Source of the DNA: a virus
Taxonomy: Duplodnaviria > Heunggongvirae > Uroviricota > Caudoviricetes
Length of the DNA: 40,808 nt
IMG/VR virus record: IMGVR_UViG_2778261545_000004
Reading direction: 5' to 3' (one strand)
The notes below the pieces were generated by a model. The model did no database searches, was not told the DNA's origin, and saw only the letters and a list, made by a program, of their open reading frames with translations. Shown here piece by piece: positions 20,815 through 28,299 of the stretch. The position numbers and the translations under genes were made by a program. Numbering within the stretch: position 1 is the stretch's first letter; every line of letters begins with the position of its first letter.

Positions 20815-22020
20815 ATGGCGGTAGATATTAAAGATGTCGAACAGGTCGCGCAGGAGCTGCAGCAGAAGTTTGACGACTTCAAAGCAAAGAACGACAAGCG
20901 CGTGGATGCGATTGAGCAGGAAAAAGGCAAGCTTGCCGGCCAGGTGGAAACCCTGAACGGGAAACTCAGCGAGCTGGAAAACCTCAAAAGCGATCTTGAA
21001 AAAGAGCTGCTTGAGCTGAAACGTCCGGCAGGTGGTGCGCAAAATAAACTGGCCACCGAGCATAAAGAAGCGTTTGTGGGCTTCCTGCGTAAAGGCCGTG
21101 AAGATGGTCTGCGCGATCTGGAGCGCAAGGCATTGCAGGTGGGCACCGATGAAGACGGCGGCTATGCCGTGCCGGAAGCACTGGATCGCAACATTCTCAC
21201 CCTGCTGAAAGATGAAGTGGTGATGCGCCAGGAAGCCACGGTGATCACCGTTGGTGGTTCCGACTACAAAAAACTGGTGAATCTGGGCGGCACGGCTTCC
21301 GGATGGGTTGGCGAGACTGACGCGCGCTCCCAGACTGCCACCTCAAAACTGGGCCTGATTGAACCTTTCATGGGGGAAATCTACGGTAACCCGCAGGCCA
21401 CCCAGAAAATGCTGGATGATGCCTTTTTCAACGTGGAAGCATGGATCAACAGCGAGCTGGCAACCGAATTTGCCGAACAGGAAGATATTGCCTTTACCAC
21501 CGGCGATGGTACCAAGAAGCCGAAAGGGTTCCTGGCGTATGAATCCACTGATGAAACCGATAAGGTCCGGGCGTTCGGCAAACTTCAGCATATTGTATCC
21601 GGCGAAGCGACGGCGGTGACCGCAGACGCCATTATCAAACTGATTTACACGCTGCGTAAGGCACACCGCACCGGCGCGAAGTTCATGATGAACAACAACA
21701 GCCTGTTTGCCATCCGTCTGCTTAAAGACAGCGAGGGTAACTATCTGTGGCGTCCGGGGCTGGAACTGGGGCAGCCGTCCTCTCTGGCGGGTTACGGTAT
21801 CGCTGAAAACGAACAGATGCCGGATATCGCCGCTGATGCGAAAGCCATTGCATTTGGTAACTTCAAACGGGGTTACACCATCGTTGACCGTATCGGCACC
21901 CGCATTCTGCGTGACCCGTACACCAATAAACCGTTTGTCGGTTTTTATACCACCAAGCGCACCGGCGGGATGCTGGTCGATTCGCAGGCCATCAAACTGC
22001 TGAAGATTGCAGCGGCGTAA
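20815..22020 (+). CDS. Major capsid protein (HK97 fold) with N-terminal coiled-coil delta domain
   Basis: 401 aa; N-terminal ~100 aa coiled coil then capsid domain; GGAGAAATACG RBS region. Confidence 0.9.
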   Translation: MAVDIKDVEQVAQELQQKFDDFKAKNDKRVDAIEQEKGKLAGQVETLNGKLSELENLKSDLEKELLELKRPAGGAQNKLATEHKEAFVGFLRKGREDGLRDLERKALQVGTDEDGGYAVPEALDRNILTLLKDEVVMRQEATVITVGGSDYKKLVNLGGTASGWVGETDARSQTATSKLGLIEPFMGEIYGNPQATQKMLDDAFFNVEAWINSELATEFAEQEDIAFTTGDGTKKPKGFLAYESTDETDKVRAFGKLQHIVSGEATAVTADAIIKLIYTLRKAHRTGAKFMMNNNSLFAIRLLKDSEGNYLWRPGLELGQPSSLAGYGIAENEQMPDIAADAKAIAFGNFKRGYTIVDRIGTRILRDPYTNKPFVGFYTTKRTGGMLVDSQAIKLLKIAAA

Positions 22021-22069
22021 TCACTCAGGGGCGCGGAACCGCGCCCCCTGTTCTGACGGGTGAAGAATC

Positions 22070-22270
22070 ATGATCCTGAAACAAGATCTGAAATGGTCAC
22101 CGGACGGTATGCGTGTTGAGGTCATTCGGGCCGGTGAGTATGACGACGGGGCGCTTCCTGCCCGGGTGCAGGAGATTGCACTTCAGGCCGGGTTAGCAGA
22201 GCGCGGAATCAGTGCAAAAAGCAGTAAAGCGGCAAAAGAGAAAAAAGCCACGACCAGTAAAGAGGGCTGA
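22070..22270 (+). CDS. Small hypothetical protein
   Basis: 66 aa ORF between capsid and connector genes, same strand. Confidence 0.4.
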   Translation: MILKQDLKWSPDGMRVEVIRAGEYDDGALPARVQEIALQAGLAERGISAKSSKAAKEKKATTSKEG

Positions 22271-22272
22271 GT

Positions 22273-22596
22273 ATGCTTCTGACAATGGAAGAGATTAAAG
22301 CCCAACTCCGGCTGGATGAGGATTTCGATGCTGATGACCGCCATCTGCAACTGCTGGCCTGTGCGGCGCAAAAGCGGACGGAAACGTATCTGAACCGGAA
22401 GCTCTATGCACCGGATGAAACCATTCCGGACAGCGATCCGGACGGACTGCACCTGCCGGATGATATTCGCCTGGGGATGCTGATGCTTATCAGCCATTTT
22501 TACGAAAACCGCTCGTCGGTTACGGAAGTGGAGAAACTCGACATGCCGCAGAGTTTTGGCTGGCTTGTTGGCCCGTACAGGTACTTTCCGCAATGA
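22273..22596 (+). CDS. Head-tail connector protein (gp6-like)
   Basis: 107 aa, position and acidic N-terminus typical of this family. Confidence 0.7.
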   Translation: MLLTMEEIKAQLRLDEDFDADDRHLQLLACAAQKRTETYLNRKLYAPDETIPDSDPDGLHLPDDIRLGMLMLISHFYENRSSVTEVEKLDMPQSFGWLVGPYRYFPQ

Positions 22597-23003
22597 AAAT
22601 TCGTCAGGCGCAGACCAGCGCAACCTACATTCTGCCGGACCCCGGCGAACTGAATAAACGCGTCCTGATCCGCCAGCGGGTGGATATGCCCGCGGATAAC
22701 TTTGGCGTGGAGCCTCAATACCCGGTTATGTTCCGGACATGGGCGAGGGTTATCCAGACCAGTGCCACCACCTGGCAGGAAACCGCGCAGACCGGAGACG
22801 CCATCACCCATTACATCACCATTCGCTACCGCCGGGGGATCACTGCTGATTATGAGGTGGTCTGTGATGACAGTGTGTACCGGGTGAAACGTCAGCGCGA
22901 TCTGAACGGGGCGCGGCGCTTTCTGCTGCTGGAGTGTACGGAGCTGGGCGAATGTAGGCAGAGTCACGGAGGCAACAATGACGACTTCCTTTTTGCACGT
23001 TGA
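22593..23003 (+). CDS. Head closure / head-tail adaptor protein
   Basis: 136 aa, overlapping starts and stops with neighbours. Confidence 0.6.
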   Translation: MKIRQAQTSATYILPDPGELNKRVLIRQRVDMPADNFGVEPQYPVMFRTWARVIQTSATTWQETAQTGDAITHYITIRYRRGITADYEVVCDDSVYRVKRQRDLNGARRFLLLECTELGECRQSHGGNNDDFLFAR

Positions 23004-23484
23004 TTTTCAGCAGCCCGCGGAGATGCGCTTTAACCGCGCCCGTGTCCGGCGGGCGTTTGTCACGATTGGTCAGCGTCATATGCGTGATGCCCGTCGGCTG
23101 GTGATGCGCCGTGCGCGGTCGGCACCGGGTGAAAACCCCGGTTATCAGACCGGACGCCTGGCTCGTTCGATTGGTTACATGGTACCCAGAGCCAGTAAAA
23201 AGCGAGCCGGTTTTATGACACGCATTGCCCCTAACCAGCACAACGGGAAGGGGAACCGGATGATCTCTGGTGACTTCTATCCGGCGTTTCTGTTTTTTGG
23301 TGTCCGGGGAGGAGCAAGACGTCGTCGTAGTCATCATCGTGGTGCATCCGGTGGCAGCGGCTGGCGACTGGCTCCACGTAATAACTTCATGGTGGAAACG
23401 CTTGAAAAGAACCGCAGCTGGACACGCTATTTTCTGGCGCGGGAATTGCGTAAATCACTGAAGCCGGAGCGACGACACAGATGA
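22978..23484 (+). CDS. Tail-completion protein (HK97 gp10-like)
   Basis: 168 aa, GGAGG RBS, gene order. Confidence 0.55.
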   Translation: MTTSFLHVDFQQPAEMRFNRARVRRAFVTIGQRHMRDARRLVMRRARSAPGENPGYQTGRLARSIGYMVPRASKKRAGFMTRIAPNQHNGKGNRMISGDFYPAFLFFGVRGGARRRRSHHRGASGGSGWRLAPRNNFMVETLEKNRSWTRYFLARELRKSLKPERRHR

Positions 23485-24041
23485 AACTGACGCCTGTTAT
23501 TGCTGCACTGCGTGCCCGCTGTCAGTATTTTGAAAACCGGGTTGCAGGCGCGGCCCAGTTCAAAAATCTGCCGGAGGTCGGAAAGCTGAAACTCCCGGCG
23601 GCATATGTGGTACCGGGGGATGATTCTCCGGGAGAAAACAAAAGCCAGACCGACTACTGGCAGGAGCTGAAAGAGGGCTTCTCCGTGGTTGTCATACTGA
23701 GTAACGGGCGTGATGAGCGCGGTCAGTTTGCCTCGTATGATGTGGTGGACGATGTCCGGCAGATGCTCTTTAAGGCCCTGCTGGGCTGGAACCCGGAAGC
23801 GTGCGGTAACCCGATTACCTATGACGGCGGCACGCTGCTGGATCTGAATCGTCATGAGCTGATTTATCAGTTCGATTTTTCGGTCATCAGCGAGCTTACC
23901 GAAGACGATACCCGCCAGCAGGATGACCTGAACAGTCTGGATGAACTGCAAACGCTGGCGATTGATGTTGATTATCTCGAGCCCGGTAACGGGCCTGACG
24001 GCGATATCGAACATCACACCGAAATACCCCTTCCTTCCTGA
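23481..24041 (+). CDS. Mu gp37-like tail protein
   Basis: 186 aa immediately upstream of the sheath module. Confidence 0.5.
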   Translation: MKLTPVIAALRARCQYFENRVAGAAQFKNLPEVGKLKLPAAYVVPGDDSPGENKSQTDYWQELKEGFSVVVILSNGRDERGQFASYDVVDDVRQMLFKALLGWNPEACGNPITYDGGTLLDLNRHELIYQFDFSVISELTEDDTRQQDDLNSLDELQTLAIDVDYLEPGNGPDGDIEHHTEIPLPS

Positions 24042-24049
24042 GGATCATC

Positions 24050-24220
24050 ATGTTTGTGAAACCTGTTAAAGGGCGGTCAGTGCCTGACCCTGCCCGCGGC
24101 GACCTTTTGCCCGCCGAAGGGCGAAATGTTGACGAGAACAACTACTGGCTGCGCCGTGAAGCAGCGGGTGATATCCGGCGCGTGAATAAAAAGGTGAATA
24201 CCGATGACGATAAGCTTTAA
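24050..24220 (+). CDS. Small conserved protein preceding the sheath gene (DUF2635-like)
   Basis: 56 aa MFVKPVKGRSVPDPARGDLLPAEGRNVDENNYW..., GAGGAT RBS; below ORF-track cutoff. Confidence 0.5.
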   Translation: MFVKPVKGRSVPDPARGDLLPAEGRNVDENNYWLRREAAGDIRRVNKKVNTDDDKL

Positions 24221-25700
24221 CACCATTCCGTCGAATACGCTGGTTCCGTTGTTTTATGCGGAAATGGATAACCAGGCTGCGAATACTGCACAGGACAGCG
24301 GAGCGTCGCTGCTGATTGGTCATGCCAATAACGGTGCAGAGATTGTTGCCAACAGTCTGGTGCTGATGCCGTCGGCAGACTATGCACGCCAGATTTGTGG
24401 TGCGGGAAGTCAGCTGGCGCGTATGGTTGAGGCTTATCGCCAGACCGACCCGTTTGGCGAGTTGTATGTGATTGCCGTTCCTGAATCCACGGGCGCGGCG
24501 GCAACGGTTACGCTGACGGTGACAGGGGCGGCAACCGAAACCGGCACGGTGAATGTTTATGTGGGACGTACCCGCGTGCAGGCACCGGTGACCAATGGCG
24601 ATAACGTCGCGACGATTGCCAGCAGTATCCAGGATGCCATCAATGCCGTTCCGACCCTGCCGTTTACGGCCTCATCTTCGGCAGGCGTGGTCACACTGAC
24701 CGCGCGTCATAAGGGGCTTTGCGGGAATGAAATTCCTGTCAGCCTCAATTACTACGGCTTTGGTGGGGGCGAAGTGCTGCCAGCGGGCGTACAGATTGCT
24801 GTGGCGACGGGTACCGCCGGAACGGGCGCTCCGGTTCTCACCGGTGCGGTGGCTGCAATGGCGGATGAGCCGTTTGATTATATCGGTCTGCCGTTCAACG
24901 ACACGGCCTCCGTTAACACGCTGGTGACCGAGATGAACGATACCAGCGGTCGCTGGAGCTATGCGCGTCAGCTGTATGGTCATGTGTATACGGCAAAGAC
25001 CGGCACGCTGTCAGAACTGGTGACCGCAGGTGACCAGTTTAACCAGCAGCACATTACCCTGGCGGGATACGAAAAAGAAACCCAGACACCTGCCGACGAG
25101 CTGGCGGCAAGCCGTACCGCCCGCGCAGCGGTGTTTATCCGCAACGATCCGGCACGTCCCACGCAGACCGGTGAGCTGGTGGGTATGCTGCCTGCGCCGA
25201 AGGGGAAACGGTTCACGATGACAGAACAACAGACCCTGCTGTCTCATGGCGTGGCAACGGCGTATGTCGAAAGTGGGGTACTGCGCATTCAGCGTGATGT
25301 CACCACGTACAGGAAAAACGCTTACGGGGTTGCGGATAACAGCTACCTCGACAGCGAGACGCTGCATACCAGTGCGTATGTACTGCGCAAACTGAAATCC
25401 GTCATTACCAGTAAGTACGGGCGTCACAAGCTTGCCAGCGACGGTACCCGCTTTGGTCCCGGTCAGGCGATTGTCACCCCGGCGGTGATCAAAGGGGAAC
25501 TGCTGGCAACCTACCGTCAGCTTGAGCGTGCGGGGATCGTGGAAAACTACGAACTGTTTAAGCAGTACCTGGTTGTGGAGCGTGATGCCAGCGATCCGAA
25601 CCGCCTGAACACGCTGTTCCCGCCTGACTATGTTAACCAGTTGCGTGTTTTTGCCGTGGTTAACCAGTTCCGTCTTCAGTATTCAGAGGAGTCCGCATAA
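24204..25700 (+). CDS. Contractile tail sheath protein (Mu L-like)
   Basis: 498 aa; size and position upstream of the tube gene. Confidence 0.85.
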   Translation: MTISFNTIPSNTLVPLFYAEMDNQAANTAQDSGASLLIGHANNGAEIVANSLVLMPSADYARQICGAGSQLARMVEAYRQTDPFGELYVIAVPESTGAAATVTLTVTGAATETGTVNVYVGRTRVQAPVTNGDNVATIASSIQDAINAVPTLPFTASSSAGVVTLTARHKGLCGNEIPVSLNYYGFGGGEVLPAGVQIAVATGTAGTGAPVLTGAVAAMADEPFDYIGLPFNDTASVNTLVTEMNDTSGRWSYARQLYGHVYTAKTGTLSELVTAGDQFNQQHITLAGYEKETQTPADELAASRTARAAVFIRNDPARPTQTGELVGMLPAPKGKRFTMTEQQTLLSHGVATAYVESGVLRIQRDVTTYRKNAYGVADNSYLDSETLHTSAYVLRKLKSVITSKYGRHKLASDGTRFGPGQAIVTPAVIKGELLATYRQLERAGIVENYELFKQYLVVERDASDPNRLNTLFPPDYVNQLRVFAVVNQFRLQYSEESA

Positions 25701-26056
25701 TGGCCCGTATCGGGGGAACCTGTTATTTCAAAATTGACGGTCAGCAGCTATCGCTGACCGGCGGCATTGAGGTGCCCATGAACAAAACGGTTAACGATGA
25801 CATCATCGGTCTGGACGGTTCAGTGGACCGCAAGGAAACTCACCGTGCGCCTTATGTCAAAGGGACCTTCAAGGTGCCGAAGAGTTTTCCGGTGAGCAAA
25901 ATCACCTCGTCTGATGAGATGACCATCACTGCCGAGCTGGCGAACGGTCAGGTCTATGTATTGTCGTCAGCCTGGCTGCACGGCGAAGCGAACCATAATG
26001 CCGAAGAAGGCACAGTCGATCTTGAGTTCCACGGTGAAGAAGGGGATTACCAGTAA
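25700..26056 (+). CDS. Tail tube protein (Mu M-like)
   Basis: 118 aa directly after the sheath. Confidence 0.8.
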   Translation: MARIGGTCYFKIDGQQLSLTGGIEVPMNKTVNDDIIGLDGSVDRKETHRAPYVKGTFKVPKSFPVSKITSSDEMTITAELANGQVYVLSSAWLHGEANHNAEEGTVDLEFHGEEGDYQ

Positions 26057-26325
26057 TGAAAGAGCTTGAGTTAAAGAAACCGATTATTGCTCATGGCGAG
26101 ACACTCTCCGTACTGGAGTTTGATGAACCCACCGGGAAGGATGTCCGCGAGCTGGGGTATCCCTACCAGATGAATCAGGATGAGTCCGTCAGACTTCTGG
26201 CGCATGTGGTGTCGAAATACATTGTGCGGCTGGCGAAAGTGCCGCAAAGCTCTGTCGACCAGATGTCTCCGGCAGACCTGAATGCAGCGGCGTGGCTTGT
26301 GGCCGGTTTTTTCCTCCAGGCCTGA
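26056..26325 (+). CDS. Tail assembly chaperone (short form)
   Basis: 89 aa immediately upstream of the tape measure gene. Confidence 0.7.
   Translation: MKELELKKPIIAHGETLSVLEFDEPTGKDVRELGYPYQMNQDESVRLLAHVVSKYIVRLAKVPQSSVDQMSPADLNAAAWLVAGFFLQA
26307..26313 (+). promoter_or_regulatory. -1 programmed ribosomal frameshift slippery heptamer T_TTT_TTC
   Basis: Heptamer in correct phase (codons GGT TTT TTC) 10 nt before the chaperone stop; -1 frame stays open to 26474. Confidence 0.6.
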
Positions 26326-26474
26326 CGGCTGAATACCTCACTGATCGCTTCTTTGACTGCGCCAGTTACTGGCGCATTAATCCCTTCGAATTGCTGAATA
26401 TGCCGATCAGTGAAATTCCCTTGCTGGTCAGTCAGGCAAACAGGATAGAGCAGGAGAAACGCACACATGGCTGA
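26307..26474 (+). CDS. Frameshift extension of the tail assembly chaperone (long form C-terminus)
   Basis: -1 frame after the slippery site reads FFPPGLTAEYLTDRFF... for 55 codons and overlaps the tape measure start. Confidence 0.55.
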   Translation, partial: FFPPGLTAEYLTDRFFDCASYWRINPFELLNMPISEIPLLVSQANRIEQEKRTHG

Positions 26475-28299
26475 ATTTGAGCTTAAGGCGTTGATCACCG
26501 GTGTCGACAGGCTTTCTCCCGCGCTGTCGAAAATGCAAAAGAAAATCCGGGGATTTAAACGCCAGGCGGAAGAAGCGTCACAGGGTGGGCTGGCGCTTGG
26601 TGGCGGACTGGCAGCGGGTCTGACGCTTTCCCTGAAATCTTATGCCGATCAGGAAAACGCCGCCACCGGGCTGAAAGTCGCCATGATGGATGCGAACGGC
26701 GAGGTTGGAAAGAGCTTTCAGGACATCAATAAACTGGCTATTGGCCTGGGTAACCAGCTACCCGGTACAACGGCTGATTTCCAAAACATGATGCAGATGC
26801 TGGTACGTCAGGGGATCCCGGCAGAAAACATTCTGGGTGGTGTGGGTAAAGCGACAGCTTATCTTGCGGTACAACTGAAAAAAACACCGGAAGCGGCTGC
26901 TGAGTTTGCTGCAAAGATGCAGGATGCTACCGGAACGGCGTCAGAAGACATGATGGGGCTGTTCGACACTATCCAGAAGGCGTTTTATCTGGGCGTTGAC
27001 GATACCAACATGTTGTCCTTCTTCACTAAAACCAGTTCTGTTCTGAAGATGGTGAACAAGGACGGTCTTCAGGCTGCACAGAGCCTTGCCCCCATCAGCG
27101 TCATGATGGATCAGATGGGGATGAACGGGGAGTCGGCAGGTAACGCCCTGCGAAAAGTTATCCAGTCCGGATTAAGCGTTAAGAAAATCAGGGACGTCAA
27201 TAAAATCATGGCCCGCCAGAAACTCGGGGTACAGCTCGATTTTACTGACGGCAAAGGAAGTTTTGGCGGTCTTGATAACATGTTCAGGCAACTGGCAAAG
27301 CTGCGAAAACTGACCGACGTTAAGCGAACAGGTGTACTTAAGGCAATATTTGGTGATGATGCCGAAACCCTTCAGGTGGTCAATGCACTAATCGATAAAG
27401 GAAAGGATGGCTACGATCAGATCCAGCAGAAGATGAATAAACAGGCCAGCCTGAATAAACGTGTTCAGGCTCAGCTTGGTACGCTGTCCAACCTGTGGGA
27501 GGCAATGACAGGGACCGCAACTAACGGCCTTGCGGCTATTGGCGGCGCATTTTCTGGTGACGCTAAAAATATCACGCAATGGCTGGGGGAGTTGGGGGAG
27601 AAATTCACGAAGTTTGCGGATGAAAATCCCCGGATTATTCGCGGCGTCGTCGGGCTTGCTGCCGGTCTTGCGATTCTGAAACTGGGATTGATGGGCGTTG
27701 GCGGTGCCATCAGTATTGTCAGCAGGATCATGTCGATGACGCCGATTGGCATGATTGCGACGGCGATAGCCCTGGCTGCGGGATTAATTATCACTAACTG
27801 GGATGTTGTCGGACCTTATTTTAAGAAACTATGGGAAACCATTGGTCCTTATTTTGAGGCTGGCTGGGAACTCCTTAAGAAAGTTTTTGCCTGGTCGCCG
27901 CTGGGGATGGTGATCAATAACTGGGGACCGGTTGTTAAGTGGTTTCAGGATATGTGGGATAAGCTGAAGCCGATTATTGAATGGTTTACCGACAGTTCCG
28001 GTGACACGGTCGATGCCATTAACTCGGCGCAGTGGGGCGCGGGTGCTTATGATGCTTATGGGACGGGAATACCGGCACGGGGATACACTCCTTATCCGGC
28101 GGTGGATCCGGCTCAGGTAAACAACGCCTCCGATGCCACAGGCTCGAATCCCTTCATGATTAATAAAGCTACCGCGCCAAAAGTTGATGGTGAGATCAAG
28201 GTATCATTTATAAATATGCCACCAGATATGCGGGTTACGGAAACACGCTCCAGTGGCATTGATATAAATCACGATGTCGGCTATACCCGATTTTGGTAG
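26467..28299 (+). CDS. Tail tape measure protein
   Basis: 610 aa, helical Ala/Gly-rich, central hydrophobic segments. Confidence 0.9.
   Translation: MAEFELKALITGVDRLSPALSKMQKKIRGFKRQAEEASQGGLALGGGLAAGLTLSLKSYADQENAATGLKVAMMDANGEVGKSFQDINKLAIGLGNQLPGTTADFQNMMQMLVRQGIPAENILGGVGKATAYLAVQLKKTPEAAAEFAAKMQDATGTASEDMMGLFDTIQKAFYLGVDDTNMLSFFTKTSSVLKMVNKDGLQAAQSLAPISVMMDQMGMNGESAGNALRKVIQSGLSVKKIRDVNKIMARQKLGVQLDFTDGKGSFGGLDNMFRQLAKLRKLTDVKRTGVLKAIFGDDAETLQVVNALIDKGKDGYDQIQQKMNKQASLNKRVQAQLGTLSNLWEAMTGTATNGLAAIGGAFSGDAKNITQWLGELGEKFTKFADENPRIIRGVVGLAAGLAILKLGLMGVGGAISIVSRIMSMTPIGMIATAIALAAGLIITNWDVVGPYFKKLWETIGPYFEAGWELLKKVFAWSPLGMVINNWGPVVKWFQDMWDKLKPIIEWFTDSSGDTVDAINSAQWGAGAYDAYGTGIPARGYTPYPAVDPAQVNNASDATGSNPFMINKATAPKVDGEIKVSFINMPPDMRVTETRSSGIDINHDVGYTRFW

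Follow-up and report, generated by a model that had tools for sequence, protein, structure and literature searches.

The gene described here belongs to a family of small tail genes, Pfam PF10948 (DUF2635), whose founding member is gp38 of phage Mu (Mup38, AAF01116.1). Mu gp38 is 67 aa long, and its gene is found between gp37 (K) and gp39 (L), with a stop codon that overlaps the start of the sheath gene by 4 nt. A second relative, orf10 of phage SfV (NP_599042.1), is annotated as “DUF2635 domain-containing protein; similar to phage Mu GP38”; the proteins of SfI, SfII and E. coli prophages are grouped with it and show no difference of substance. A third is orthogroup OG0000019 of the SfV-type (Rp4) R-tailocins of Pseudomonas. 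PFL_1215, to which the note on Orf10 of DVM-2008 refers, is one of its proteins. This orthogroup is the sole family member with direct protein-level detection, and its gene belongs to a head-less bacteriocin cluster and not to a phage. With the T4 gp15 and P2 gpS-type terminators the likeness is confined to the label in the Mu GenBank record and to some role in tail completion. There is no similarity of sequence or fold, DUF2635 proteins are far smaller, and in Mu it is gp37, not gp38, that is seen to cap the sheath. A literature search by family and gene name found no publication on “DUF2635” and nothing relevant for “Mup38”. The family is very widely distributed, its members are strongly conserved and highly expressed, and it forms part of one of the best-studied phage tails.

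The DNA analysed, hereafter the window, is a stretch of 40,808 nt from a Caudoviricetes virus (IMG/VR record IMGVR_UViG_2778261545_000004). Features of the tail region that are referred to below are the following, with strand and basis where these apply.

22593..23003, head completion protein (position and ORF/Pfam)
22978..23484, Neck1-type protein (position and ORF/Pfam)
23481..24041, + strand, tail terminator (Mu gp37/K-type), 186 aa, upstream neighbour (PF23840 Phage_tail_terminator, E=2e-25)
24040..24045, + strand, GAGGAT, Shine-Dalgarno-like motif of the small gene (read directly from the sequence)
24050..24220, + strand, DUF2635/Mup38-family gene, ATG start, 56 codons, TAA stop (ORF list, PF10948, PHROG 208)
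24050..24184, + strand, codons 1-45, conserved core, predicted folded (alignments A1 and A2, AF2)
24185..24217, + strand, codons 46-56, variable charged C-terminal tail, predicted disordered (AF2, homolog variation)
24191..24197, + strand, AAGGTGA, Shine-Dalgarno-like motif of the sheath gene, within the C-terminal codons of the small gene (sequence)
24204..24220, + strand, 17 nt shared by the 3′ end of the small gene and the 5′ end of the sheath gene (translational coupling)
24204..25700, + strand, tail sheath (Mu gpL-type), 498 aa, downstream neighbour (Phage_sheath_1, sheath_1C and domII; PHROG 165)
25700..26056, tube (ORF/Pfam)
26056..26325, tail assembly chaperone (PF10109)
26467..28299, tape measure protein (ORF/Pfam)

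The product of the small ORF (56 aa) is MFVKPVKGRSVPDPARGDLLPAEGRNVDENNYWLRREAAGDIRRVNKKVNTDDDKL. It is 100% identical to SfV orf10, with the same relative coordinates and the same 17-nt sheath overlap, and the two genes are separated by 3 substitutions, all synonymous. The original prediction of a 56-codon ORF with a GAGGAT ribosome binding site, overlapping the sheath gene by 17 nt, is correct in each of these points, as judged from the sequence and the ORF call. GAGGAT shares bases with the TGA (24039-24041) of the terminator gene and is separated from the ATG by a spacer of 4 bases (CATC). That the gene had been missed holds for the ORF list, which has a default threshold of 60 aa, and this cutoff alone accounts for its absence there; it does not hold for public annotation, where the SfV record and RefSeq/PGAP list the gene. 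The gene is in fact already known: it has been in the SfV genome annotation since publication, a Pfam family is devoted to it, and PGAP calls it routinely.

The N-terminus had been described as that of a small protein family of Mu-like tail clusters, and database searches bear this out. PF10948 is matched at 60.9 bits (gathering cutoff 26.6, E=9.8e-17) over profile positions 1-45 of 46, and PHROG 208 (“unknown function”) at E=3.6e-26. A tblastn comparison with Mu gives 42.3% identity to gp38 over residues 3-54 (E=9e-7, Mu 21498-21653). The same motif is present in gp38, which differs in its longer Lys/Ser-rich tail and its shorter overlap. The surroundings also differ, in that Mu has a Mu-type head and a transposition module whereas the window element has an HK97-like head module. 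OG0000019 shows about 60% identity in the core and the same terminator-DUF2635-sheath order. The core motif of the family is KPxxGRxVxDPxxGxxLPxxGxxVxxxxYWxRRxxxGD(V/I). In alignments of 20 (A1) and 69 (A2) sequences P5, P14, L20, G24, W33 and R35 are invariant, and the window protein carries P5, G8, V11, D13-P14, L20, G24, V27, W33, R35-R36 and G40-D41, all invariant or nearly so in both. The invariant residues are common to phages of Enterobacteria, Pseudomonas, Burkholderia, Bordetella, Vibrio and Acetobacter.

Among close relatives the gene hardly varies. This region of the window is 96-98% identical to the temperate Shigella/E. coli phages SfI, SfII, SfIV and SfV and to related E. coli phages, and the protein is unchanged in all 80 of the IMG/VR loci listed. 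The same 261-nt stretch is present in 1,070 of 5,426 complete RefSeq E. coli genomes, about a fifth, where PGAP names the product “DUF2635 domain-containing protein” and flanks it with “phage tail terminator protein” and the sheath. There is nothing unusual about the window copy, which as a finding in this window is ordinary.

ORFs of 56 aa or more number 190 over the six frames of the window, so the length of the small ORF is by itself no better than chance. Three antisense ORFs of 49-85 aa also lie over the site, none with a Pfam match. The homologous ORF was taken from 16 phage loci (SfV, Mu, phiP27, ST64B, EPP-1, YeP1, AH07, IPK, BgVeeders33, phiNP, PG1, BZS1, phiAP1, PBb002, DVM-2008 and the window). 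It is open and begins with ATG in 16 of 16, always with the core motif. Nei-Gojobori dN/dS between the window and ST64B, EPP-1, phiP27, YeP1 and AH07 is 0.10-0.36, with synonymous sites close to saturation in these comparisons. As a frame control, the ungapped 129-nt core of 6 phages was compared in 15 pairs in each of the three frames. In the DUF2635 frame 15 of 15 pairs have an omega of 0.05-0.24, against 0.65-8.5 in the two shifted frames. Between the window and ST64B the core differs at 1, 3 and 19 sites at codon positions 1, 2 and 3, respectively, so that position 3 dominates. Thus the reading frame is conserved in related tail clusters, being open, ATG-initiated and under purifying selection in every cluster examined, and homology together with this frame-specific selection shows, at the level of sequence comparison, that 24050..24220 is a genuine protein-coding gene. 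That it is a chance ORF without a product, for which the abundance of ORFs of this size in the window speaks, is contradicted by homology, by selection and by the proteomics described below; this explanation is refuted, and the probability left to it is next to nil.

The family extends well beyond these phages. A profile search found 1,959 DUF2635 clusters at 90% identity, and an exhaustive HMM search found 3,296 representatives at 50% identity, with an E of at most 1e-10 for 370. Among the best 150 of the 3,296 representatives, 146 are 44-105 aa in size, and nearly all are stand-alone proteins. The homologs whose lengths were examined range from 52 to 137 aa overall, with a C-terminal tail that varies in both length and sequence. 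The order terminator, DUF2635, sheath is found in 26 of 29 diverse loci examined. DUF2635 accompanies the Mu-type tail module (terminator, DUF2635, sheath, tube, TAC, TMP, DNA_circ_N and gpP), while the attached head modules vary between Mu-type, HK97-type and lambda-type; the gene is kept with each. It is also kept in head-less SfV-type (Rp4) Pseudomonas tailocin clusters, directly after the holin and the terminator. Head-less tailocin clusters retain tail morphogenesis and regulatory genes only (Hockett et al. 2015, PMC4542187). Since DUF2635 is among the genes kept, its role must be in the tail and not in head assembly or DNA packaging.

A sheath-anchored survey covered 189 phage records, and ten divergent lineages were checked by profile HMM. 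A DUF2635 ORF lies immediately 5′ of the sheath gene in seven of the ten: Ralstonia YO023_3, Shewanella MuM16-2, Vibrio 1.136.O, Mannheimia 3927AP2, SuMu, Rhizobium PPF1 and RR1-A, with a weak HMM match in the case of PPF1 and RR1-A. No DUF2635-like ORF was detected by profile HMM before the sheath gene of Ralstonia YO382_2 and YO356_1 (L104 and L105, about 1025-1504), thus a related contractile tail module exists without this gene. In these two, which lack a small ORF at this place, a 159-aa gene stops exactly at the sheath start, and the sheath lineage is a distant one (28-31% identity). In Burkholderia vB_D1 the DUF2635 position is occupied by an 88-aa ORF (L109:1083-1349) that gives no HMM match. 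There is a loose resemblance to the DUF2635 motif in its C-terminal part, …GVGRVVVNREFGG…RILRLLDDNDLI, and it has an acidic Pro-rich extension that is N-terminal, whereas the extension in DUF2635 proteins is C-terminal. This ORF may be a very divergent DUF2635 relative.

The arrangement of signals around the gene was compared in 19 homologous loci. Relative to the terminator stop, the start of the small gene ranges from 14 nt before to 9 nt after; the terminator is the upstream neighbour in all Mu-type loci. An SD-like motif is located 4-11 nt 5′ of the small-gene start. In 17 of the 19, the DUF2635 gene runs 1-17 nt into the sheath gene, and in the remaining two the distances are 0 and 6 nt. 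In 19 of 19 the sheath SD lies inside the C-terminal codons of DUF2635. Because DUF2635 begins next to the end of the terminator gene and ends inside the sheath gene, the terminator, DUF2635 and sheath genes form one translationally coupled unit. A promoter scan found no sigma-70-like promoter within 22000-26600, and no Rfam family was detected anywhere in the window, which fits a single polycistronic late operon. The C-termini of DUF2635 proteins are rich in Lys, Gly and Glu (e.g., …KKGGE, …KEKK, …KGSKG), and this is partly dictated by codons that double as an AAGGAG-like sheath ribosome binding site. Such a dual-coding constraint probably explains part of the tail composition; the selected part of the protein is the core of 45 residues.

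AF2 modeling gave a mean pLDDT of 86.5, with about 95 for residues 1-45 and 47-77 in the tail. The model predicts a compact alpha/beta domain of about 45 residues, with strands and a helix at 31-39, followed by a short disordered charged tail. A PDB sequence search with the single protein gave no match, and one with a 20-sequence profile gave chance DARPin matches only (E>1). The L9-N-domain-like modules, i.e., the N-domain of B. subtilis YqbF (2hjq) and the C-domain of lambda gpFI (2lsm), have scores insufficient for homology, show no sequence similarity to DUF2635 and are encoded at different genomic positions.

In rare natural fusions from metagenomic phages the DUF2635 domain forms the N-terminal ~50 residues and is followed by a Pro-rich linker and large domains. 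Three proteins of this set are listed here.

P0237, 402 aa, L016:3036-4244, DUF2635 domain, linker and fn3 domain
P0285, 737 aa, L017:1580-3793, DUF2635 domain, and a C-terminal region containing the Asp-box-like motif SEDDGETF
P0292, 171 aa, L098:2958-3473, DUF2635 domain, followed by a laminin-G-like protein

The genes for these fusions are located in neck or fibre clusters (head-tail adaptor, head completion, Neck1 and Gly_rich_2 fibre-like proteins), and the short contigs carry no sheath gene. Modules placed N-terminally in this way commonly serve to attach an appendage to the particle.

Protein-level data are available for tailocins and for the Mu virion. In the study of Carim et al. 2021 (PMC8319346), MudPIT was applied to Pseudomonas tailocins after partial purification, the sample being the 30% ammonium-sulfate precipitate of a filtered, mitomycin-induced lysate. 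OG0000019 is a 182-nt “Rp4 structural” gene between the terminator (OG18) and the sheath (OG20). According to Table S4 of that study, its product was detected in Pse04 with 93.3% coverage, 69 spectra and an NSAF of 0.026 (sheath 0.051, terminator 0.018, tube 0.008), in Pse05 with 88.3% coverage, 38 spectra and an NSAF of 0.011 (sheath 0.055, terminator 0.006, tube 0.005), and in Pse06 with 55% coverage, 32 spectra and an NSAF of 0.024. It exceeds the terminator in both Pse04 and Pse05. Host proteins in these preparations are mostly at an NSAF of 0.0002-0.002, and tailocin proteins make up 8-16 mol% of the samples (PMC8319346). These data are direct evidence that the DUF2635 product is stable, abundant and fractionates with tail particles, in crude samples of which tailocin proteins are only 8-16 mol%. 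It should be noted that the chaperone ortholog Pseudo4_contig_3_1018 reaches an NSAF of 0.054 with 233 spectra in Pse04, level with the sheath (PMC8319346). A chaperone is unexpected in finished tails, and its abundance is a warning on inferring structure from crude tailocin preparations. The tailocin proteomics of Ghequire et al. 2015 are not applicable here, as BW11M1 (the Rp2 reference) and RW10S2 are not of the SfV-like Rp4 type. In the SuMu virion proteomics paper, whose MS is weak, gp38 is absent from the text.

In the 2025 cryo-EM study of whole Mu, at 3.3-3.5 A, the portal, adaptor, terminator, sheath, tube, TMP C-terminus and whole baseplate are resolved, and the gp37 hexamer caps the tube and sheath through a C-terminal beta-hairpin (PMC11915804). 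The virion maps have no density for gp38, which the authors class among “probably structural proteins” with structure not resolved (PMC11915804). The mature Mu virion thus does not contain gp38 as an ordered, stoichiometric component.

Several readings of the function can be weighed against these results. The sole functional label in circulation comes from the Mu record AF083977.1, where Mu_38 is named “putative sheath terminator protein”, i.e., a ring that caps the last sheath layer as an analogue of T4 gp15. The position between the terminator and sheath genes would fit, by analogy with two-protein completion systems. However the label carries no supporting note, the predicted 45-residue fold is unlike known terminator folds, with no sequence similarity either, and it is contradicted by the Mu structure, in which the cap is formed by gp37 and gp38 is not in the density (PMC11915804). 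This reading is largely refuted and very unlikely to be right. Still less probable is that the ORF is a coupling leader, in which only translation through to the sheath start matters and the peptide has no function. The overlap with the sheath start (17 of 19 loci) and the position of the sheath SD inside the ORF speak for such a leader, but it is contradicted by strong frame-specific purifying selection on the amino acids, by residues invariant across phages of Enterobacteria to Acetobacter, by a confident AF2 fold, by reuse of the domain in fusions, and by a stable and abundant protein.

As the main alternative to the reading favoured below, it is possible, though on balance doubtful, that DUF2635 is a non-structural assembly factor that acts transiently on the sheath subunits or the terminator during tail completion and is then released. 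It might, for example, block premature sheath polymerisation or time the capping, and it would be absent from finished particles. The near-atomic Mu maps, in which gp38 has no density, as is also the case for the known chaperone gp41 (PMC11915804), are consistent with such a role, as are the small size of the protein and its translationally coupled position directly 5′ of the sheath gene. The signal in the tailocin preparations is also compatible with a non-structural protein, as a genuine chaperone ortholog is also abundant there. On the other hand, the fusions to fn3 and other large domains in neck and fibre clusters resemble virion-attached proteins and not chaperones, DUF2635 outnumbers the terminator in the precipitates of Pse04 and Pse05, and the variable low-complexity C-terminal tails resemble exposed linkers.

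The reading favoured here, to which we give an even chance, is that the DUF2635 protein is an accessory or docking protein associated with the head-proximal end of the tail, and not the sheath terminator. In support of docking, the fusions place the DUF2635 domain N-terminal to a linker and large domains in neck and fibre clusters. The conserved domain would dock on the head-proximal end of the finished tail, on either the terminator hexamer or the last sheath ring, and the C-terminus would stay free and flexible. Its binding might be loose or sub-stoichiometric, or the joining of the head might displace it. Loose binding or displacement at head joining would reconcile the abundance of the protein with head-less tailocins and its invisibility in Mu virions. 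A wider form of this docking role is put forward tentatively, and is rather unlikely in its full extent: DUF2635 may be a portable docking module of ~45 residues for the neck and proximal tail, which in Mu- and SfV-type tails stands alone on the head-proximal face of the finished tail, is retained on tailocins, is lost or displaced by the head, and elsewhere anchors large fn3, laminin-G-like or Asp-box-containing appendages to the neck. If true, DUF2635 would be an unrecognised and widespread adaptor in tail completion and head-tail joining. Taken together, the tailocin proteomics, the Mu cryo-EM and the natural fusions lead to a testable idea on tail completion.

A role for DUF2635 as the tail assembly chaperone (lambda gpG/GT-type, Phage_TAC_7) was also considered and rejected; that role is held by the separate gene 26056..26325 (PF10109), with a slip site and a -1 extension. 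The chaperone gene ends in ...GGT TTT TTC CTC CAG GCC TGA, with a -1 slippery heptamer T_TTT_TTC at 26307-26313, and a -1 frame ORF at 26292..26474 extends just beyond the ATG of the tape measure gene (26467). On these sequence features, 26056-26474 has the form of a classic gpG/GT-type programmed frameshift. The putative frameshift-extended product is unannotated in RefSeq SfV, where a gap is present between orf13 and orf14.

Gaps and errors in annotation were also noted in and around the small gene. The DUF2635 ORF is intact and has no CDS feature in SfIV (NC_022749.1, 7619-7786), phiP27 (NC_003356.1, 29200-29361) and VIT_AJPSC (OR799564.1, 7619-7786), a recurrent annotation gap for this gene. 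ORF cutoffs of 60 aa hide real tail genes, and several deposited phage genomes are still without the DUF2635 gene. The upstream neighbour is affected in another way. PHROG 209 names the tail terminator family “portal protein”, and the RefSeq records of Mu, SfMu, D108 and Mannheimia 3927AP2 do likewise for gp37, whereas PF23840 and the Mu cryo-EM identify gp37 as the tail terminator. The “portal protein” label on gp37 looks like a propagated mis-annotation.
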